Part shown: positions 1 to 61,100 of the stretch, in pieces
Position numbering within the stretch: position 1 is the stretch's first letter
Layout of the letters: each line of letters opens with the position of its first letter
Program-made: the position numbers and the translations under genes
The notes under the pieces: model-generated
What the model was told of the DNA's origin: nothing
What the model saw: the letters and a program-made list of their open reading frames with translations, nothing else
Database searches by the model: none
NCBI RefSeq assembly: GCF_015706575.1
Contig: NW_024037076.1
Span: 22,733,286-22,797,285 of the forward strand
Length of the DNA stretch: 64,000 nucleotides
Reading direction: 5' to 3'
From: Patiria miniata
Lineage: Eukaryota

Positions 1-14
1 TCAGAGCCGTTTAC

Positions 15-83
15 CTTGAAGAGATAATCCAGGATCTGATCCAGATACGGCTCAGGATAATTCACCAATAACCTGGACGTAGC
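15..83 (-). CDS. GALC: GALC paralog copy B exon 2, encoding [23 protein letters not shown]. The remainder of copy B lies beyond the left edge of the window.
   Basis: Positions 1-105 are identical to 12575-12680 apart from one synonymous change. The acceptor cag and the gtaaac donor are the same as in copy A. Confidence 0.75.
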
Positions 84-829
84 CTGGACAAAAACAAGTT
101 CATCTTCAAAATTAGTGGATGTTAAGGCTTGAAATGACAATTTATGGTAGGGTACCAATAGGTACTACTTTACTTACAATCCAGATGAAAAGGGAAATTT
201 CCAGTTAACTTCCGAGAGCTCACTGCTCATGGAAATGTTAAACTTCCAACTCATTTGAAAGACACATTGGGTCGTACCCAGTGTTTGTTAATGGTCCCGA
301 GTGTGATTCTGTTATTGTTAACTTAAGTTTTGACTAAAACAGTCGTCAGGTGTGCGCTTCAGCACCAGTTGACGAGGTTCTGTGTGTTTTCTTGTGGGTC
401 TCTTGTGACCACACTGTCACACCTAGGTTATGTGAATTCCTGATGAGCTTGTTAAGCTGGAGTTACTCAAGCTAGTTTTGAAGGTGAAATCTGATGTTTT
501 TGTTGGCAATGATGGGTTTTTGGGTCAACGGTAGCTTGAGTAACTCCAGCTTTAATCCTTATCTTATGCGATAAGCATTAGAGCTGGAGTTACTCAAGCT
601 AGGTCAACAGCAGAATTGTGTCACGTGATGGCAGCACCATTGCTTGGATCCTACTATCGCCAGACCACGTCCGAATGTTATTAAATAGGCGACAAGTTGG
701 GTCCCAGTTACTCGGACTGTATGGGCTGGGGTCATTAAATGATTTATCATGAGAATGTAATGACTGTTGAACCTGACTGTTTATCAATATCTAGCATTAT
801 TACACCATTTTTAATTTGTTTGCAAATAT

Positions 830-1433
830 GGTTGAATTATACATGTACATTAAATTGAAGCTCTGGACGGGAGGAAGACAATGGCGCAAAAATAAATGCC
901 ATAGGTGCTTCCTTTCAGGAGTTATGCCCTCCCAAAGACACCATACTCGTGACTCTTCTGGTCGTCATTTGTGTCAACGTGATTGTTTTCTTAGAAATGA
1001 GCATAGGCCCTACTGTTTATTTTAAGTTCCCATTTAGTCAAACTTGACATCAAATTAAAGCTCTTGATGTGAGAAAGACAATAGTGCAAACGATATTGCC
1101 GTAAGTACTTTCCATCAGGAATTATGCCCTCCTGAAGACACCATACTCCATGAATTCGTCTGGTTGTCATTTCAGTCAACATGATATTTTAGCTTCAAAT
1201 ATAGTCAAACTTAAAATCATATTAAAGCTCTGGTGTAAACGATATTGCCATAGGTGCTTTTGTTAAGGAGTTATGCCCTCCCGAACACACCGTACTCCTG
1301 TAACTCTTCTGGGCATCATTTAAGTCAACATGACTGTTTACTTAGAAATGAGCACACTGGGTTTTTTTAAGTTCAAATTAAGTCAATGTTTACATTAAAT
1401 TAAGATAGTGGATATTTTGCCGGAGGTAATGAC
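830..1433. repeat. Tandem satellite with a unit of about 185-200 bp and three and a half copies. The units carry conserved blocks attaaagctct, gccataggtgctt, gttatgccctcc and agtcaac.tga. The array continues as a partial unit after the insertion, at 1956-2010.
   Basis: Direct comparison of 848-1050, 1051-1215 and 1216-1395 shows 80-90 percent identity between the units. Confidence 0.7.
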
Positions 1434-1955
1434 GGCAAACTAACGTTTACTAAAGGTTTGCCGGCGGCAATCCATATCAACAGAGGGCGCTGTACTCTTT
1501 AAGATAGGGCTGAATTATAAGATGTATTAAATTCTCACCAAAAGTTGTGTAGCACGTTTAGTGTAGTGGTTAAGCAAAGGCTCTAGTAAGCGGGATGACT
1601 CAGGTTCAATTCCGACCGCAGCACATTTTTAAGGTTTTTTTTCTCATCCCCAAATAAATAAGAATATTCTTCTTTTATTATTTTAACATGTCTCAAACAT
1701 TTTTTTGCAGAGTATTACATTTTCTTTTTCAGATTTGTGGCTCTGGAGGATTTTTTTTAAAAGGGAAATAAAGTCCGAAATTATAAAATGGTCTGAATCC
1801 CATCTTGTGAATACGAGGTTACAACGATAATTTTGGCATGGAGCCAGACTAAAATTTGTCACCGGAAAATGTTTAAGTACAAAAAAACAGTAACTGCGCA
1901 TGTTCAGTGCATATCCGGCAAACTAACGTTTACTAAAGGTTTGCCGTCTCTGGCA
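1434..1955. mobile_element. Insertion of about 460 bp into the satellite, bounded by two identical 30-bp direct repeats GGCAAACTAACGTTTACTAAAGGTTTGCCG at 1434-1463 and 1926-1955. Each repeat is itself an imperfect palindrome. The insertion carries the tRNA-like element and a pol-III terminator.
   Basis: The terminal direct repeats are exact. An outer inverted repeat, atattttgccgg and ctggcaaaatat, is also present. Satellite sequence resumes immediately on both sides. Confidence 0.5.
1551..1626 (+). pseudogene. tRNA-like pol-III element (tRNA pseudogene or SINE head). It has a D-loop TAGTGTAGTGGTTA and a T-loop GGTTCAATTCC but no intact acceptor stem. Oligo-T terminators follow at 1626-1642.
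   Basis: Conserved tRNA D-arm and T-arm boxes (A-box and B-box) are present. The 5' and 3' ends cannot pair into a 7-bp acceptor stem. The element lies inside a hairpin-flanked insertion. Confidence 0.45.
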
Positions 1956-2223
1956 AAATATACACTGCCTTAAATTAAACCTCTTGATGTGCAAAATACA
2001 CTAGTAGTACTAGTATAAAAAAATCTCAAATTTATTTCCATTCTCTGTTATTAAACCGCTCTAATCCACCCCACTTCCACACCCCAGTATCAGTTTCACC
2101 CCATAGGCCCATCCCACCGGTACCCCAACACAACCCACGAGTTAAACACAATATCAAGTTTACTGGTTTGGTTAGGTTATCATGGTTATGGGGCTAGGAA
2201 ATCTGCAAATTTTAAGCACTTAC

Positions 2224-2370
2224 TCCTCCACCACTGAGTCCGCCAATTCCATCAAACCGCCTTCCAAGCCCTGGTACATCACTTATCACGTATTGAGAGG
2301 CTACAGAATAGCTACCAATCAACTGCAACACGAATAAAATGTGAAAAACCTCTGCGATAAAATACGACAT
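2224..2370 (-). CDS. GALC: GALC paralog copy B exon 1. It encodes MSYFIAEVFHILFVLQLIGSYSVASQYVISDVPGLGRRFDGIGGLSGGG and is followed by a gtaagt donor.
   Basis: The 147-nt exon is collinear with copy A exon 1 and differs at 5 aa (AH to SY, AS to VP, Y to F). The donor is the same, and the 5' UTR similarity extends about 100 bp upstream (2371-2470 compared with 14421-14520). Confidence 0.8.
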
Positions 2371-2595
2371 TGTCGGCTCCTCTCGATCTCAATGTTTAAT
2401 GATCTGGTGCCCTAAAATTGTTGAATCGGTACAACTACCACACCACTAGACACCAGACATACCAGGCGCCCAAAACATATGAGGCAAGATATGAGGCACA
2501 ACTTTTGACCACATATCTTTTATATTTCGTACTTGCTGCTATTACAAAAAAAATCGCGCGAGAGCCGACATGTTCCTTATCGAGTGCTGATTGGT

Positions 2596-2608
2596 CAGTT
2601 TGGGAGGT
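2596..2608. promoter_or_regulatory. Inverted CCAAT box (gctgATTGGtcag), about 230 bp upstream of the copy B GALC start codon.
   Basis: The motif is an ATTGG or Y-box type and lies in a CpG-containing segment (tcgcgcgagagccgac) 5' of exon 1 on the coding strand. Confidence 0.25.
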
Positions 2609-3508
2609 GTGGCACTTAATATTCATAAATCTGTCACAAGTTTTTATATTGATCACGAAATTACAAATAAATGCCCGTGAACTAACTTTAGTTATTACAG
2701 CAAATAGGCCAGGCCTGACAAATAAAGAAATAAATTATTATATTATTTAAAAAAAAAAAAAAGGATAAAAAGAACTCCACTTTCTTGAAAAATCATGAAC
2801 AAATGAATGTTGCATAGATTATTTTATTTTCCTCATCTTAACGGCACTTTACATTTGTTATGTCAAGAGTTAAATCATAATTTGTGGTTGAAATAGCTGA
2901 AGAAGTAATTCAATCCGATAACCAGGTCATTTATTTGGCCATTTTACATTCAGGCATCACTGTGGGAAGTTGATGTTCAGCTAATAAACCAGCTTTTGTC
3001 TGAAGTAGTATTCTCATGAAAGATTCTCCCTCCCACAAAACTCTCACTGTTTGCCAAACCAAGGTTATAATGGTTTGATAGCATTCATCATGGAATAACT
3101 CTCAAAGAAATGTATTCATACAAGTAGGAATAGGAAATATGACAATGCAAAGGCTCATTTTATTTCACTTCTAAAAATGAAAGAAAACTTGATTAAGCAG
3201 CTGGGAACACTTCCAGCATTCTGTAAGTACACAATTAAGTAAATTTTAACTTAAATACATGTACTCAGTTCTGTAGAAATATGTGGAAAATATAAAAGAG
3301 TATTACTACTCTTCAGACTAGAAATCTACGGCATATTAAGAGTATTACTACCCTTCGGACTACTCTACAGAATAATAAAAGTATTACTATCCTTCCGAAA
3401 AAAACAACTAGTTTTAATAATACAATGTAGTACCATCCAGTACATCAGTTTTTCAAATTCTCAGTAACACTAGCCAAATCAACCTGTATATTATGTTTTA
3501 GAGTGGTT

Positions 3509-3514
3509 TATTTA
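3509..3514 (-). terminator. Candidate polyadenylation signal (AATAAA) of GALC copy A, about 440 nt downstream of the stop codon.
   Basis: The plus strand reads tttatt within gagtggtttatttattg. The position suits a 3' UTR of a few hundred nt, and no other coding sequence follows. Confidence 0.35.
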
Positions 3515-3952
3515 TTGTGTCAATGGTAGAAACCAGATGATCATTTGCCATTTTTACCATCATGATGTTTACCATTTATATTTAAACTTCAACTTTACTG
3601 TTGACGTTAATAATATGTATTATGTCCACTTTTAAATGTATTTTTTTTGTTAGTATACATGTAAATGTTACCATGTGCAATTCAGCTGCAAGGATGCAAT
3701 ACATTGGATTTTGTAATACACCAAAATAATACATTGGTGTACTGAATTAATTCTTGGTTTTACGCCCCCCCCCCCACAAAAAAAAAGGGCAAAGAAGGAC
3801 GTTACTCATCAAAAGTTTAATGTTACTGTTTCTTGTAGTAACACTTGCATCATATGCCTGCCTTCATAGGCTAAATGGTTTGTTTTTTAAGTTACAGGTC
3901 AGTAATAACTGATCATGTTACACATGTAAGTACCTGGCACTGAGCTATCAAT

Positions 3953-4105
3953 CTAAGATGCTGAAATAATGTCGAAATTATCAAACTGCGCTGATGCATA
4001 GTTAGGCATTCCCATGGCAACGAATCCATGACTGGGGATTGTCTTAGGATCTAGTGATGCAGTGAACAGCGTCTTGCCTTGGACGAATCCTGTAGCTTTG
4101 TTGTC
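3953..4105 (-). CDS. GALC: GALC copy A terminal exon 15, encoding DNKATGFVQGKTLFTASLDPKTIPSHGFVAMGMPNYASAQFDNFDIISAS and the TAG stop at 3953-3955.
   Basis: The acceptor is ttgcctccag. The sequence matches the human C-terminus [25 protein letters not shown]. An AATAAA signal lies on the minus strand at about 3509-3514. Confidence 0.88.
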   Translation of the reverse strand, partial: DNKATGFVQGKTLFTASLDPKTIPSHGFVAMGMPNYASAQFDNFDIISAS

Positions 4106-8231: not shown

Positions 8232-8740
8232 CTGTAGGAAGTACATTTTATTTTATTGCAATTATACAACTTAGAGTGCATCACAAATTTCAATTCATGA
8301 TGTGTTTGATGATCTTTAGTTTTGGTATAATTTATTACCTATCTGCTCATTGTTCTCCACAATAGAAAGTTCTTATCTCTAACAAAAAATGCATGTCTAA
8401 ACACTGATGGTGCTCATATGATGTAATGACATTGCTAAATATTTACCGTTATTGATAATGTTCAATTGCTTCAAGTTAACAACTTTGCTAATACCATCTT
8501 TAAAAGTTAATTACAATATAATTAGCTTGCTTAGGAATGATAAACTCATTTACAAGTGAAGTTAGAGTGTCATGGTGTACAGCAGAATGGTAGGTGCGCT
8601 GGTTTTAAGGAAGCACAGGAGATCAAAGGAGTATGATATGAACAGAAAATATGAAAGAAAATAATAAATGAACCTCAGCCACCAAACAGTTGCAGTCCAA
8701 TTGATTGATGAAATAGGAAATACATGTGTTTGAATCATAC

Positions 8741-8907
8741 CCAATAATAGCCACATCTTTGGCAATTTCTGGGTCGTTGTGTATCGCGATACTGATGAAT
8801 TCAAGATTGTCAGCTGCTACAATTAGCGTCTCAGAAAGACCTTTCTTATCCAGCGTTTTTCGGAGAACTTTTATGTATTCAATATCAAAGGGTCGTTCGT
8901 TCCATAT
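8741..8907 (-). CDS. GALC: GALC copy A exon 5, encoding IWNERPFDIEYIKVLRKTLDKKGLSETLIVAADNLEFISIAIHNDPEIAKDVAII(G). It contains the WNE acid/base motif.
   Basis: The acceptor is cag and the donor is gtatga. The sequence matches human [34 protein letters not shown]. The exon ends with GG, completed to a glycine codon by exon 6. Confidence 0.9.
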
Positions 8908-9532: not shown

Positions 9533-10304
9533 TGGCACCAGACCATTTTGTAGCAAAATTAAGTTGGCTGCAAGTTAGCTAATTGTTCGCAACATCTTAG
9601 TTACATTTCACTAATTGTTAAGACTGTCTTATATTCTGAACCCATTCTGAGACTGTGCAATAGAAAAGTGGTTGTGTATCATGTCTCTTGACGACAGGGA
9701 AGAGTATTCTGTCTGAAAATGTTGACTTTACCCGAATCTTTACAGAACCTCACAAACTCACAAAACAGATTTGTCAAGTGGCGCTAACACAAATCTTTAT
9801 GCTATTGCTATCTTCCCCACACAAACCTTCAAATTTGATTATGAGCACTGTATTTTTAATGAAATGCACTCTGATGTTTAAATGTGCGCAAAGAAAAAGC
9901 ACAGAGGTGGAAAGCAGATTTAGGATAGATGAACTCAAGCCTCCTACCCTATAATCTGAACAGCTGCAGCCAATGCTTTATCCATCAAGATATCCTGACT
10001 GATTGCTGATGTCCCATCAGCAGCAACCACTGCTATATGGCTGAGGCCAGCTTTGTTTAGAGAGGATCTCAAAGTCTTGATGTAGGTAGAGTTATATGGC
10101 CTTTCATTCCAAATCTAGAATTAGGAATATTGAATTCTTCAGTATATGGACCAATTTGGAAGAACTCTTGAATTTAAGTATCAAGTCACATAAATATTGC
10201 TAAACAAATTCAAAAAATACAATGGCATGGTAGAAAGACCAACTTAGACAAGCAGCAGCAGAGGAAAAAAAAGAAAAAAAATAATTGTAAAAATAAGCAA
10301 TTAT

Positions 10305-10500
10305 TAGTATTTTTTTTTTTTTAATTAATTTATTCAGCTTATCAAATTAGGTTTTGCCCTTCACCGACATATAAACACTGTATACTCAGTGTGTTACCTC
10401 CCGAGTGAAAGTTGGAAAGAATCACTCGGGTGGGACTCAAACCCACGACCTCCTGCTTTCTAGTGCAGATGTCTTACCACTCGACCACCGAGCTAATGGG
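10305..10500 (-). mobile_element. tRNA-derived SINE-like element in GALC intron 4. The tRNA-like head is at about 10425-10497, with a B-box GGGTTTGAGTCCC. The body ends in an A-rich tail (plus-strand T-run at 10307-10321).
   Basis: A-box and B-box motifs, a tRNA-like cloverleaf with imperfect stems, and a 3' poly-A tail are all present. The element is related to the copy at 51730-51800. Confidence 0.5.
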
Positions 10501-11098
10501 ATCGGTTGGCTGGTTCGAATCTGATGTACATAGCAGCATGGATACAGCATGGTACATCACAATACAACAGACAAAAGCCAGCAGCAAATGCCAGAAATTG
10601 AAAAAGTTAACTTATTAATAACTGTGATCGTATGGCCTTCAATACCAATACCAGTGGCTACAAATCACATACATTAAAAAGAAGAACAGTTGCCGAGTTA
10701 TATCACATTGAAGTCATGCATTTATCCATGCAAGAAAGTGGTAACTGCAAAATGGCCTACCCAATGACCTGAACTGCCTTGGCCAGTGCAGGATCCTTCA
10801 GGATATCATAACTGATTCGAAATTTGCCGTCTGCAGCAACAACTTGAACATGGTGGAGTGATTTCCGATCTAGAGTTGCCCTAAGTAATTTGATATATGA
10901 AGCATTATGCTTCCTTTCATTCCATATCTAAAATTGGGAAAAAAGAAAATTCTTGAGAATCAAAACTTTTAAACATGTTGAAAAACATGAAACACACAAT
11001 TTGAACTCATTTGATGCCTGCCATTTTGAACTATTACTTGGCTGGACAATCAAATTTGGAGGAAGAAAGCTATATAAAAATAATCAATTGAAACTTAC

Positions 11099-12036: not shown

Positions 12037-12587
12037 CTGTTAACGTGCAGAATCAGAAGTAGTTCATTACTTATGTGCCTGGTTGGAGATAATGTCTGAT
12101 AAGTTTGTTCATATCTGCAGTTGTACCAAGCTGCTTAGTGCAGCCACATAGTTATAAACTAATATTAACATTTTCCTTATTTGGTGAAAATTTCAATTTG
12201 GTAGTTAAAAATAAAACTAGAGGTGGTTGTAACTGAAGATGTTCCCAACATATTTTTAACTGTCTATTGGACAGTACAAAATGATTGAATGATTTGTCCA
12301 AAATGTGTAACCATTGAAAATGAAATTTAATCTTTAATAATTGCAAAACTGGAAGAAAAGGTCACATGACCTTGACATTCCAGGAGGTGGATTCCAAATT
12401 CCAGTCTACTATGTGAAAATGTGTGAAGAAATAGAATAACTTATTGTACTGTTAAGATATGGTGGCCACAAAATTGCCTCATTAAATATTCATGACGTCA
12501 TAACACAAGAACAATAAACTGCACAGTAATAATAATGACAAAAAGACATTTATTCCTTAGAAAAGGTCAATTTTCAGAGCCGTTTAC

Positions 12588-12656
12588 CTTGAAGAGATAA
12601 TCCAGGATCTGATCCAGATACGGCTCAGGATAATTCACCAATAACCTGGATGTAGC
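12588..12656 (-). CDS. GALC: GALC copy A exon 2, encoding [23 protein letters not shown].
   Basis: The acceptor is tttttgtccag and the donor is gtaaac. The sequence matches human [23 protein letters not shown]. Confidence 0.9.
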
Positions 12657-14273
12657 CTGGACAAAAACAAGTTCATCTTCAAGCTTTACTTTAGCTTTGA
12701 TCAAATCAGAGTCAAGGTAGCCGTATTCTATGGCCATGCACTGGACTAAACTCCGTGCTGAAGGCCATACTTCCCTGACAACAAGAAGTTACTGAAAAGA
12801 TGTTCTTTTTTTTCATAGAAATCATTTGGCCTCAAACTCGGCATGCAGGTTCACTTACCCATGCGATTCCATTATTTGCCAAAATGAGGACTTCTCCGTT
12901 GTTCTTTCTGGTGTAATTTGTATCTTACTTTGTGACACGAAGCAGCCGTTCTGTCATCGATCACGCGAACATTAACGATAAGTGTTTTCAGCGCTATGGC
13001 TAGTTCCTGTGCCCGCGTATTCTCAACCGGAGAAGACCTAGACGTACAGGTAAGCTTTAGACAGGAGGTTCGGCTACAACAGTTAAATCACTTTGGTCGG
13101 AGAACTAGACTAATACTACACTCAGCTGCCAGCCATGAACTTCCACTTCGGTTGGCAAATTAATTTTTAATAAGAGGCAAATTTCACCAGAAGGAAATAA
13201 AGGGAAGTCCTAATTTTGGGCAAATATTGAAAGGTCTTTTTTTTCTTCAAACTGCCAATCTTTGGATGGAACGTGCGTAAGACCGAGCCACAGAGTTTAC
13301 TATAGACTACGGCGAGGCAAAAAACATACTGTTATTCGTTGACGAATTTTCAACTATCAGAGATTCTACAACTAATATTTTGTTTCAACAAACATTCGAT
13401 GCAAGAGTTTATACGACTGCAAAGTATGAACAAAATAGGCGAAATCACACAGTCCGAGTGATGTACTGAGGAGAACATTTTCTCCTTTTTCGTGATTTTC
13501 TAACAAGCCGTCCACATGTCAAAGCGCGAGTCCGAAATCTGTCCAAAATTTCTTTTCTTGAGTTTTTATTGAAAAATTCTGGAAAGAATGTTGCAACCTG
13601 ATGGCTGAAGCCACATCAGTGGTTGTGTACAAAGTCTATGGACAGTCAAGACAATTTTCTGATTATTTCCTTAAAACAAAATTGAAAACGTTTCTCAGTC
13701 ACAGATCCATGTCTAATCTTTATGCAATGACTGACCCTCATTGAGATGATACATGAAGAAAAAAGCAGCGTCAGGTTGCAACATTCTTTCCAAAGATCTT
13801 TGTGTATCATTATCAAGAAGCTTACAGTTTCCTTTTCAAAATGCACTCCGTAGAAACAATAGTATTGGAAACCAATTCTAAAAGAGGTCAGTTTGGAAAG
13901 ATTCCTATATCTGGCCATCACTAAAAAATTGTCCCTTTGGCTTTATTTTTAGTTACCTATCTGCCATCATAAAGAGGATCGGCCTATGTCCTAAAAAGTC
14001 AAATTTAATAACAGGAAAAATATTGAATAATGAAGTACTTACTGAGAAAACACATACACAATTTCAGAGCAGTGTCATAGGGTTTGTGCACAGGGTGACA
14101 AGTGATGGCCAGGTATGGGAATATTTCCATACGTTTTTATTTGAAGCGATCTGGAACTTGGAAAAAAATCCAGAACTGTAGGGCCTGGAAAACCACTGTA
14201 CACTGCTACTGCAAATTGCAATTGAATCGTGAAATCGGGGGGGCAAGGAAATCTGCAAATTTAAAGCACTTAC

Positions 14274-14420
14274 TCCTCCACCACTGAGTCCGCCAATTCC
14301 ATCATACCGCCTTCCAAGCCCTGATGCATCACTTATCACGTATTGTGAGGCTACAGAATAGCTACCAATCAACTGCAACACGAATAAAATGTGAAAAACT
14401 TCTGCGATAAAATGCGCCAT
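14274..14420 (-). CDS. GALC: GALC copy A exon 1, carrying the ATG and the signal peptide. It encodes MAHFIAEVFHILFVLQLIGSYSVASQYVISDASGLGRRYDGIGGLSGGG and is followed by a gtaagt donor.
   Basis: The ATG sits at 14418-14420 on the minus strand. The hydrophobic leader and the DGLGR.DGIGG.SGGG motif match the human GALC N-terminus. The exon ends at the same position as human exon 1. Confidence 0.88.
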
Positions 14421-14544
14421 GGTTTGCCTCCTCTCGATCCCAATGTTGAGTGATCTGGTGCCATGAAATTGTTGAACAAGAACTACATACCGTACCACTA
14501 GACGCCAGACATGCCAGGCACCAATTATTTCTCGTCACCTGATG

Positions 14545-51729: not shown

Positions 51730-51800
51730 CTGAGGCAGGACTCGAACCCATAACCTACTGTCTACAAATGCAGACATCGGAACCCTTCCTCATCAACTCA
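51730..51800 (-). mobile_element. tRNA-derived SINE head of the same family as the element at 10425-10497, lying in a TIA1-like intron (B-box GGGTTCGAGTCC).
   Basis: The sequence is similar to the other tRNA-like copy (atctgca..gcag.aggt..tgggtt.gagtcc). It is not a foldable canonical tRNA. Confidence 0.4.
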
Positions 51801-58110: not shown

Positions 58111-61100
58111 TAATACTGCATGTATATGTAAATTGCAGGCCTTTTCTTCAGACATTCAATTTTCGCAGTCCATGAGGTGACGAGATCGGAGCTTGAAATA
58201 ACAATGGTAGCAGCAGTGCTAATAAGAGTCTGATAAAGCCATCCACGTGAAACGTTTCTAATACAAATAAACTCCAGTTACTTCAATATCATTTCCATCT
58301 CCAAAAGTGCTTTTAACAAATAATTTCTTATGTTTTTCTTCAATATAATCATTCCTTTGATTATTCATTCCTTTTGATTCCTTTTTATAACTAATCCTAA
58401 CTTTATTTCAGTCAACAAAAAAATTTCCCCAGGAAGCATTGTAAAGATAAATGTGAAATGATCAATTCATTCTGCTAAAGCATTCGTTATATCAACCTCA
58501 ATAACATTTTAACACAAAGACTCTGTCATCAATAAAAGCCACTGCTCGCAAGGCAAATTTACCCAAAGTGCAGAGGGATTTTCCAAGGCTTTGATGCCAG
58601 CATGAACCGCCCAGCTTCTGATAATTTTTGTCCAAAGAAATTTTCACAGGAAATTATACGGTGCCTTTGAAAGGCAGTTAGAAGGTGAGCAAACATCTAG
58701 CCAAAGTGGCTTACGCATGCCATGCCCGCAAGGCTCCAAAAGTGGACAATTGAATCTAGACATCAAACGGCAGTCGAGTGGAAAAAGAAGAGATAGCACA
58801 TAAAAAACAGTCGAAGGTTGACTGCCGTTTGCTGAGGGGAATAAACGCTGAAAGGAACCTTAGACTGAATCCGAAGGCCATGTAGTTCACTCTAAAAACA
58901 AAAAAGGAGGTCTCTGACCAATAAATGAATTATGCCGAATCGAAGAGTTTCCTTGCCTAGTGCCTAGCTTTCCTGGCTTTTGATTGTGCAGGTGCATTTG
59001 TCCAAACTGCATCAAGTTAAAAAAATATTAAGGATTGATTGGGCATCCGGTGAAGTAGCAACAGAATGCTTAGGATTGAACATTGATATCTAAACATAGG
59101 CTTGAGATGTTTATACCGGTACATAGATGCCATCTTGCTGCTTTTAAGGTCGCTGCAGACTTCAAAGAAATACATGTACATGTACACTGTACATGTTCTC
59201 CAAACATTTTATTGTACAAATTTGACTAGACGGGGATTTGTTCTGGTTTCTGGAAATCAGATTTGCAACAGACTGATACTCTTCACGGCACACACTTCCA
59301 AGACACTTCACACAGACGTGAGTCACCTGCCTAACAATATTAAGACCTAAGTCCTACATGTGTAACTCTATTCAGTTCTGTGTACTGTGTTCTCTCATGT
59401 CAAACAGACTGTATTTAACCTTAAGACAGGCACTTGCAAAGTACTAAGCATGAGTTTTATTATACGCCTTCATTATTAAACCCACTATACCCTCAGTGTA
59501 CGCAGTTTGATCCTTCACACTGTATAGCCAAGCATGAACGGCCTTCCCTACCATCAAATAAGTAATTATTTAAGACGTATCAACCAAACGGACAGGAAAT
59601 ATCCGCAAAGACAATAACGGAAGTTCTTGGGATGTAATCAAGTTGCCTCCATGACGAGAGATTTCTCTAATCATATAGACATGCCTCATCAGTTGACCGT
59701 GACCATTCTAGCTTCTCAGACCCGCTTCGTGTTTACCAATAATTCCCTGCCTTGGCCAACTGTGCTCCCCAGGGAACACGTTTGCCTGCATGGAACATGA
59801 ATCATTCCTGCTACGTTGACTAGCATGCCTCTCTCTCTAGATCACAAGACTGGGTGTTAAGGGTTGACCTACTCGGACCATCTTGTCTCCGCAGACCACC
59901 TGTCAAATATAACCAGGCATCGATGCTCGCAATAAAATCAAGAATATCTACAAGTAGCTGCAAATTAGACAATCTGTTATTCAAGGTTTCGTACGTATGC
60001 ATCAACTGCACAACAACGTCTGAAAAAAATTGTCAGATACAAACTAGTAATACTAATAATACTAGTAATACTAAAAATAGCAAAAAATGAAAGGTGTTGA
60101 GTGGGAAATTTCTTTTGGGGAAAAAAATTGATAAACAGGGTCAGACGTATGAAATGCGTATCCGTAGGTGATTTATGCAATATCTCCTTTGGGATTTTAA
60201 GACTAGCAACATCATCTATATGTACAGCATTACTTCACTATACTGTGTACAAAATTACTTTCCTCCAATAACCTGAAAACTCTAGAACAAAAAGAGTGGA
60301 TATAAGAAGGTCTTTCAGTACCGGCAAGCACCTTCATGTTCCTCCGTCCCTTGACTATACCCTCACAGCTTCACCAATAACACCAAACCATGTCCAACTC
60401 TCTACGATTTTCAATCATTCCTCCCAATGGGTTGAGATTACCCCATAGCCTACATGCATGACTTCTCCTTTAATGAATATATACATGGAGTCCCCTCATC
60501 GCATCATTCCTTATTATTGTTATCATTGGGAGGAGAAGGGAAGTGAGGTGATAGAAGGTTGGATGGCAGACTTGCGGACTTAGCGCCCTCCTCATCATCC
60601 AATTCTCCTGCATGTTTATCCTGAGAGTCTCTGGGGAAATATCCCCTGATGTTGCCGGACGGTTTACACGATTTGGAAGCTTGCTGATAAACGTCTTGAG
60701 TGAAACTCACTCACAGAGCTGCTTCTCAAGCTTTTCCTAATCTGCATCATGTCATCACCATTTGTGCACTCAATCCACCTTTTTCACACAGCTTCTTAGC
60801 AAGTTAAAGGGCAACTCTAATGATGTGATGATTTTTTACACCCAAACTCAACAACTTCCTCCAGTAGACCACTGTGGGGACAAAAGCACCTGACCAATTC
60901 TAACAAGCACCAACAGTTACCTTCTTATTCGAGTGTAAGAAATAAGAAATATGTGCATCTTCATGAACACTCTTGTTGCTGAATCGAGACGAGATCAAAC
61001 CCCAAAAAATCCTGGAGATTTTCAAGTTTGATATGAGCAGTTAAAAAGACATTTGGGTTGTTGAGTTTTTTTTATAATCTGGCTAACTTAGGAATTCGAC

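Follow-up and report, generated by a model that had tools for sequence, protein, structure and literature searches.

A probable MITE-like DNA transposon in the fourth unit of a decayed tandem repeat within a galactocerebrosidase-like intron of Patiria miniata

What interrupts the short tandem repeat at positions 830-2010 of this locus, and what kind of mobile DNA, if any, does the interrupting sequence represent? We addressed this question within the whole stretch of DNA that was analysed (64,000 nucleotides, hereafter the window), whose base composition has eukaryotic character (GC 37.5%, CpG observed/expected 0.47). On the minus strand, galactocerebrosidase (GALC) exons were recognised in stop-free frames, and the best protein-search match of the joined exons was Patiria miniata (bat star) 'galactocerebrosidase-like'. 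When four proteins of the P. miniata GALC-like cluster were compared to the window by tblastn, individual exons matched at 100% identity, and two tandem GALC-like genes were located on the minus strand. Three of the exons were placed as follows:

2251-2370, minus strand: coding exon 1 of XP_038045329.1, galactocerebrosidase-like (tblastn, 100% identity)
9-83, minus strand: exon 2 of XP_038045329.1 (tblastn)
14420-14301, minus strand: exon 1 of XP_038045330-2, the neighbouring GALC-like gene (tblastn)

With exon 1 and exon 2 placed at 2251-2370 and 9-83, respectively, the region 830-2010 falls wholly within intron 1 of the XP_038045329.1 gene. Intron 1 of the neighbouring, paralogous GALC-like gene (12683-14240), considered as a pre-insertion reference, had no similarity to the intron that holds the feature, and the GALC locus of Asterias amurensis showed neither similarity to the P. 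miniata intron nor the hairpin motif described below.

The initial annotation had described the surrounding repeat as a satellite array of about 185-bp units. Repeat finding and blastn showed that the tandem units are real, but that they make up a single, local and decayed array, with units of ~210, 167 and 178 bp that are 66-82% alike, followed by a truncated fourth:

808-1017, plus strand: tandem-repeat unit 1, ~210 bp, 5' part diverged (in register with units 2 and 3, 66-79%)
1018-1184, plus strand: tandem-repeat unit 2, 167 bp, ~33 nt shorter at its end than unit 1 (repeat finding, multiple alignment)
1185-1362, plus strand: tandem-repeat unit 3, 178 bp, internal deletion of 18 nt (repeat finding, multiple alignment)
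1363-1403, plus strand: left part of unit 4, with the left target-site duplication at its end (alignment to units 2 and 3 stops at 1403)
1979-2005, plus strand: right part of unit 4, where the array ends (repeat finding, alignments)

Seed-based repeat finding placed three in-register copies at 847, 1047 and 1196 (spacing 200 and 149) and recovered a second register at 1018, 1185 and 1363 (spacing 167 and 178), with overall identities of 62-85%, and blastn self-matches between the units had 66-79% identity. TRF did not report the array when run on the whole window, even at a minimum score of 30, and only seed-based repeat finding and blastn made it visible. The three units and the truncated fourth are arranged head to tail, as in satellite DNA. 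The array is shorter than 0.8 kb, and blastn found no further copies of it elsewhere in the 64-kb window; 'satellite' is a generous word for one local array of three units and a fragment within 64 kb.

The limits of the interruption could be read from the repeat itself. In a multiple alignment, unit 4 matched its sister units until ...ACATTAAATTAA (1403) and then diverged, and the sequence past the second of two 31-bp motifs (see below) re-entered the unit at the same TTAAATTAA columns, in phase, as ACCTCTTGATGTGCAAAATACACTAGT. When 1363-1403 was joined to 1979-2040 and compared to unit 2, 66 nt aligned gap-free across the junction (54/66, score 42), whereas with the insert left in place the match to units 2 and 3 ended exactly at 1403. 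Taking out 1404-1978 brings unit 4 back in phase. The array holds an insertion with these limits:

1395-1403, no strand: left target-site duplication, TTAAATTAA (both copies in the same unit columns)
1404-1969, plus strand: inserted element, 566 bp, non-coding, MITE-like (unit alignments, terminus alignment, frame analysis)
1970-1978, no strand: right target-site duplication, TTAAATTAA (sequence and alignments)

The TTAAATTAA duplication is 9 bp long, perfect, and directly adjoins both termini; the chance of 9/9 flank identity at fixed positions was estimated at ~6.5e-6 at this base composition. Units 1-3 are uninterrupted at the homologous site and have nothing like the 566 bp there, and these intact sister units bear out the earlier claim of a real insertion into the repeat. 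The unit alignments moved its break from 1434 to 1403/1404, and replaced the proposed element of ~460 bp with one of 566 bp plus the 9-bp duplication. The repeat was also said to go on past the insertion, which is true in that it resumes in phase, but it does so for only ~27 nt (1979-2005) before it ends. Before integration the empty site is predicted to have read ...ACATTAAATTAAACCTC..., and the host repeat serves as an internal 'empty site' control for what is probably a small, cleanly delimited inverted-repeat transposon in the bat star.

The termini of the element are imperfect inverted repeats of ~60 nt each. Comparison of 1404-1480 with the reverse complement of 1900-1969 gave a local score of 27.5, compared to 8.1 +/- 1.7 (maximum 16) over 1000 shuffles. 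Repeat finding paired outer arms at 1395-1425 and 1948-1978, and with arms of 31 nt that are 84% complementary, the flanking outer inverted repeat of the initial annotation is present and is longer than first reported. Each terminus can be divided into an outer stretch and an inner palindrome:

1404-1464, plus strand: left inverted terminus (inverted alignment 27.5 vs 8.1 +/- 1.7)
1404-1425, plus strand: outer 22 nt of the left inverted terminus, GATAGTGGATATTTTGCCGGAG
1426-1431, plus strand: 6-nt spacer GTAATG of the left inverted terminus, at the left end only
1432-1464, plus strand: 33-mer of the left inverted terminus, A-CGGCAAAC-15-nt loop-GTTTGCCG-G
1433-1463, plus strand: left 31-bp palindromic motif, 8-bp stems and 15-nt loop (exact repeat search, fold)
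1915-1969, minus strand: right inverted terminus, 33-mer at 1915-1947 and then outer 22 nt CTCTGGCAAAATATACACTGCC at 1948-1969 (repeat finding, alignment)
1916-1946, plus strand: right 31-bp palindromic motif, loop oriented as on the left (exact repeat search)

The inner 33-mers are 33/33 identical allowing for the flip of the loop, whereas the outer 22 nt match at 18/22 positions (GATAGTGGATATTTTGCCGGAG against GGCAGTGTATATTTTGCCAGAG) and are followed by the 6-nt indel. The terminal 19-mer occurs exactly twice in the window, on opposite strands. The terminus sequence suited to comparison with transposon ends is GGCAGTGTATATTTTGCC.

The 31-bp motifs account for one aspect of the locus as it was first described, namely identical 30-bp direct repeats taken to be the ends of the element. 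An exact 31-bp direct repeat, CGGCAAACTAACGTTTACTAAAGGTTTGCCG, does exist (two copies in the window compared to 0 expected), but it is subterminal, and the true ends are formed by the outer inverted repeat. Each copy is near-palindromic, as had been noted, with 8-bp stems around a 15-nt loop, and the DNA folds into a stem-loop of -9.1 kcal/mol (z = -2.6). Since the stems are a perfect palindrome, they read identically in either orientation; the direct orientation is real for the 15-nt loop alone, and the 'identical direct repeats' are subterminal palindromes in inverted termini. The case illustrates how palindromes within inverted termini can pass for identical direct repeats. The bases that border the 31-mer show inverted symmetry as well (A...G on the left, C...T on the right), which a direct duplication would not require.

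Further inward the symmetry is lost, as no inverted similarity was detected past the palindromes (score 8.5 vs shuffle mean 7.9). Each end carries three copies of the motif TTTGCC(G/A)G / C(C/T)GGCAAA in mirror order, an arrangement typical of subterminal binding-site arrays. In addition, TTTGCCGGCGGCAAT (1457-1471) repeats TTTGCCGGAGGTAAT (1416-1430). Similarity between the element ends and the repeat units was not significant (score 9.5 vs shuffle mean 9.1), so that within this array the hairpin belongs to an insertion and not to the satellite unit, as the initial annotation had supposed. On the same comparison, derivation of the satellite from the element, or the reverse, was considered and rejected.

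The interior of the element is A/T-rich and non-coding, with a longest stop-free stretch of 79 codons and no Pfam match above threshold. Within it lies the tRNA-like cargo:

1544-1625, plus strand: decayed tRNA-gene-like unit (A and B box motifs; unrecognised as tRNA by Rfam and by default ARAGORN)
1559-1569, plus strand: A box, TAGTGTAGTGG (motif)
1603-1613, plus strand: B box, GGTTCAATTCC (motif)
1626-1642, plus strand: T5 (1626-1630) and T8 (1635-1642), pol III terminator-like, directly past the tRNA-like 3' end (sequence)

The A box and B box are 33 nt apart, and a pair at tRNA spacing was found at this one place in the window and in none of 100 shuffles. The B-box pattern alone was found twice compared to 0.17 expected, whereas the A-box pattern alone showed no enrichment in the window (4 observed vs 4.6 expected). 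The proposed tRNA-like cargo held up in these respects, with A box, B box and T runs at the right spacing, but it was not recognised by standard detection: Rfam searches of 1-4000, and of 1500-1680 (181 nt) at E<=10, returned neither RF00005 tRNA nor any other credible family for the cargo, and ARAGORN reported nothing by default and called it as a tRNA only when the threshold was lowered to 70%. The cargo also folded no better than shuffled sequence (z = -0.5). We read it as the decayed relic of a tRNA gene that keeps promoter-like boxes, and which could still recruit RNA polymerase III.

Over its tRNA-like part, the cargo aligns at ~60% to another tRNA-like sequence on the minus strand at 10422-10494, which is far better preserved (47 bits vs the Rfam tRNA model, with an 8-nt anticodon loop). 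The score of this alignment, 18.5, is within the range of shuffled sequence (13.6 +/- 1.7, maximum 19.5), and at most the likeness would reflect shared tRNA character, with no proof of one family. The sequence at 10422-10494 sits in an intron of the neighbouring gene.

No second copy of the element was found in the 64-kb window by searches with the 29-mer, a degenerate palindrome or the terminal 19-mer, or by blastn at word sizes 9 and 7. A site at 60629 was considered as a further copy of the hairpin and rejected, as it has 3 mismatches and looks like chance. In public collections, the hairpin pattern had 0 matches in metagenomes and 0 in viral contigs, and the combined terminus-plus-hairpin pattern had 0 in prokaryote genomes and matched one metagenome contig. 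This contig is GC-rich, bacterial-like sequence, and the match was treated as chance.

We favor, with a probability of about 0.6, the reading that 1404-1969 is a single small non-autonomous, MITE-like DNA transposon that sits in unit 4 of an old, decayed repeat. A transposase supplied in trans by an autonomous relative would mobilise the element, with putative binding sites in the palindromes and in the TTTGCCGG/CCGGCAAA repeats, and on integration a staggered cut of 9 bp at TTAAATTAA within unit 4 would give rise to the target duplication. The shared orientation of the loops may have arisen when the 15-nt loop inverted between its stem arms of 8-9 bp, or it may be a normal feature of the family, and the decayed tRNA gene in the interior may have been captured from the host or may be what is left of an old, nested fragment of tRNA derivation. 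Chloroplast DNA offers well-known examples of such small inversions of hairpin loops. Ends of the Ac and Mutator types commonly hold subterminal motifs in both orientations, and direct-orientation subterminal motifs are common among transposons of the MITE-like/inverted-repeat class. The architecture of the element is that of a normal small inverted-repeat (MITE-like) DNA transposon and not of a new element type.

Several observations count against a single transposon. The window holds one copy, so that the anatomy of this copy is what speaks for the mobility of a family. The loops of the palindromes share one orientation, unlike what plain inverted termini would predict, and the inverted similarity stops at the palindromes (8.5 vs 7.9). 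Conservation is also uneven, with 33/33 in the inner part compared to 18/22 and the 6-nt indel in the outer part, a pattern that calls for termini imperfect from the outset or for a second event.

The strongest rival to a single insertion proposes such a second event. An 83-bp palindromic element (1404-1463 plus 1947-1969) would have integrated with the 9-bp duplication, and 452 bp (1464-1915) would later have entered the centre of its hairpin, where staggered nicks at both bases of the palindrome would duplicate the whole 31-mer; the foreign 452 bp, with the tRNA relic, could have come by retroposition or by capture of filler DNA in break repair. This nested history accounts directly for the direct orientation and 31/31 identity of the 31-mers next to outer arms that match at only 18/22 positions, as well as for interior ends that lack inverted similarity, and the reconstructed 83-mer does fold as one long hairpin (-24.6 kcal/mol vs -6.6 +/- 2.1 for shuffles). 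We nevertheless consider it unlikely: two separate events would be required, and the 31-bp duplication would be unusually long, with limits that match those of the palindrome exactly. The first and last bases of the supposed insert, G1464 and C1915, lengthen the palindrome symmetrically, on this reading a coincidence estimated at ~1 in 16, and since TTTGCCGGCGGCAAT repeats TTTGCCGGAGGTAAT, the likeness of the terminus runs on into the supposed insert. The interior ends are also without SINE/LINE hallmarks, with no A-rich or simple-repeat tail at either one, and the tRNA-like part lies 80 nt from the left 31-mer. Quite unlikely, in our view, is a local rearrangement that involved no transposon, in which break repair with inverted duplication and filler DNA produced both the arms and the duplications. 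That only a single copy is known would agree with it, as would the established fragility of palindromic sites, but the inverted arms were not copied from the adjacent repeat, and a clean 9-bp direct duplication of this kind, by which the host repeat regains its exact phase, is the mark that staggered-cut integration leaves.

The cargo and the hairpin each point to a further class of element. A tRNA-derived SINE or other retroposon, with the 31-bp repeats as its target duplication, would explain the A box, B box and T runs, and another tRNA-like sequence is present in the intron of the neighbouring gene. The tRNA-like head is internal, however, separated from the 31-mer by 80 nt and from the end of the element by 140 nt, its T-run terminators follow immediately as in a tRNA gene and not as in a SINE, no 3' tail adjoins the right repeat (none at 1900-1969), and inverted termini with a 9-bp duplication lie outside the 31-mers. 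The initial annotation had likewise set the locus apart from ordinary SINEs, in agreement with the internal head, the missing 3' tail and the inverted termini, and we regard a retroposon as very improbable. Its comparison to helitrons fared less well, even though a hairpin does lie near the right end with CTGG (CTRR) 3 nt after it. Helitrons make no target duplication, and the present element has one along with its inverted terminal repeats. It lacks a 5'-TC end, and CTGG is followed by C where an A|T (or T|T) insertion site would supply a T. A Helitron or Helentron with a 3' hairpin is thus hardly to be expected, and the same holds for a mere variant of the repeat unit without any insertion, which is excluded within this array by units 1-3, all without the 566 bp. 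The likeness to foldback elements that was also suggested does not extend to structure, as the long inverted termini of foldback elements are built of subrepeats and make up most of the element, whereas the termini here are ~60 nt long in an element of 566 bp with a unique interior.

Among known systems, the element that we read as a single transposon resembles MITEs in its length of 566 bp, its lack of coding capacity, its A/T-rich interior and its imperfect terminal inverted repeats, and also in a short target duplication of the fixed-length type and ends capable of folding back. It differs from them in the same-oriented loops of its subterminal palindromes and in the tRNA-gene relic inside, and it is known here from one copy. 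The cargo shares an A box, a B box, the right spacing and a T run after the 3' end with tRNA genes and the heads of tRNA-derived SINEs, but its cloverleaf is lost and it lies away from the 5' end of the mobile unit.

The 9-bp duplication fits a relative of either the Merlin or the Mutator type, and we leave the superfamily unassigned. Merlin elements are characterized by an 8-9-bp target duplication, terminal 5'-GG and terminal inverted repeats of 24-462 bp, and in echinoderms they comprise only 8 sequences from 2 species (PMC8101967). The ends of the P. miniata element read 5'-GGCAGTG on the right and 5'-GATAGTG on the left. Its 9-bp duplication, termini of ~60 nt and GG at the right end are shared with this IS1016/IS1595-related superfamily, whereas GA in place of GG at the left end is not, and no transposase or autonomous partner was seen in the window. 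Mutator-like (MULE) termini usually measure 100 bp or more, and Pack-MULEs, which are non-autonomous MULEs with captured pieces of host sequence, have been described mainly in plants. In the 2007 classification of Wicker et al., Mutator target duplications are reportedly 9-11 bp long. The element is like MULEs and Pack-MULEs in having a 9-bp duplication and inverted termini around unrelated DNA of putative host derivation (here the tRNA-gene relic), and its inverted similarity stops after ~60 nt.

Short satellite-like arrays tied to small mobile elements in euchromatin are also found in bivalves, where DTC84 in Donax (PMC3879986) and Cg_HINE in Crassostrea (PMC7492417) are reported among tandem-repeat-containing MITEs and Helentron-associated elements. 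In those accounts the repeats lie inside the element, whereas the P. miniata element is inserted into repeats and its removal restores the unit; Helitron-type ends are also absent from it.

Beyond annotation the significance of the locus is small, with the orientation of the loops and the internal tRNA-type promoter as small curiosities. Two further proposals, an undescribed echinoderm family of DNA transposons with a pol III (tRNA-type) unit in its consensus (a MITE/SINE-like hybrid) and a 31-bp duplication left by a structure-directed insertion at the middle of a palindrome able to form a cruciform, are together a long shot. If a tRNA-type promoter were common to a multi-copy family, a DNA transposon that spreads pol III units would be modestly interesting, and would also be a possible source of intronic antisense pol III transcription; the tRNA-like unit at this locus is oriented antisense to the XP_038045329.1 gene.

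Two galactocerebrosidase (GALC)-like genes, XP_038045329 and XP_038045330-2, lie in tandem on the minus strand. Their second exons are 99% identical (1-109 vs 12574-12682), and the region comprising exon 1 and its upstream sequence is 90% identical (2190-2470 vs 14240-14522), whereas comparison of their first introns (110-2190 vs 12683-14240) detected no similarity. This pairing of similar exons with dissimilar first introns suggests either gene conversion limited to exons or complete turnover of the intron through insertions. A 39-bp tandem repeat (3292-3395; 2.6 copies, 80% matches, TRF score 120) is located between the two genes.

Within the GALC-like gene, three 56-codon exons (IWNER...IIG) that resemble one another are arranged in tandem on the minus strand:

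8740-8907, minus strand, 56-codon exon 100% identical to annotated isoform X1
9947-10114, minus strand, 56-codon exon 100% identical to annotated isoform X2
10760-10927, minus strand, 56-codon exon merged into a longer alignment by tblastn, presumably the X3 version

Together they look like a mutually exclusive exon triplet.

The first intron of XP_038045329, which hosts the 566-bp MITE-like element, also contains three copies (+, -, +) of the 21-nt motif AGCTGGAGTTACTCAAGCTAG within 454-602. Two strong hairpins form in this stretch, one with 32-nt arms (532-563/570-601, 94%) and one with 28-nt arms (454-481/525-552, 89%), and searches against miRNA families gave only sub-threshold matches. 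The stretch resembles a small element of foldback or MITE-like type.

When public collections were searched with a pattern built from the inverted terminus and 31-bp palindromic motif of the 566-bp element, the sole match was at 1201-1230 of metagenome contig Ga0315270_10072587 (L001). Because this contig is GC-rich and bacterial-looking by sequence, we treated the hit as a chance match to the 22 specified bases, unrelated to the element.

Other tRNA-like sequences occur in the window. One, on the minus strand at 10422-10494, scores 47 bits, above the Rfam gathering score, and sits in an intron of the GALC-like gene that does not host the element. Its anticodon loop has 8 nt (aCUAGAAA) and ARAGORN assigns it no anticodon; the sequence is probably either a tRNA pseudogene or a SINE head of tRNA origin. 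Besides the B box within the 566-bp element, the window has one more exact B-box match, GGTTCGAGTCC, on the minus strand at 51738-51748 in surroundings that resemble a tRNA 3' half (gtaggttatgggttcgagtcctgcc), possibly a further relic of a tRNA-derived repeat.
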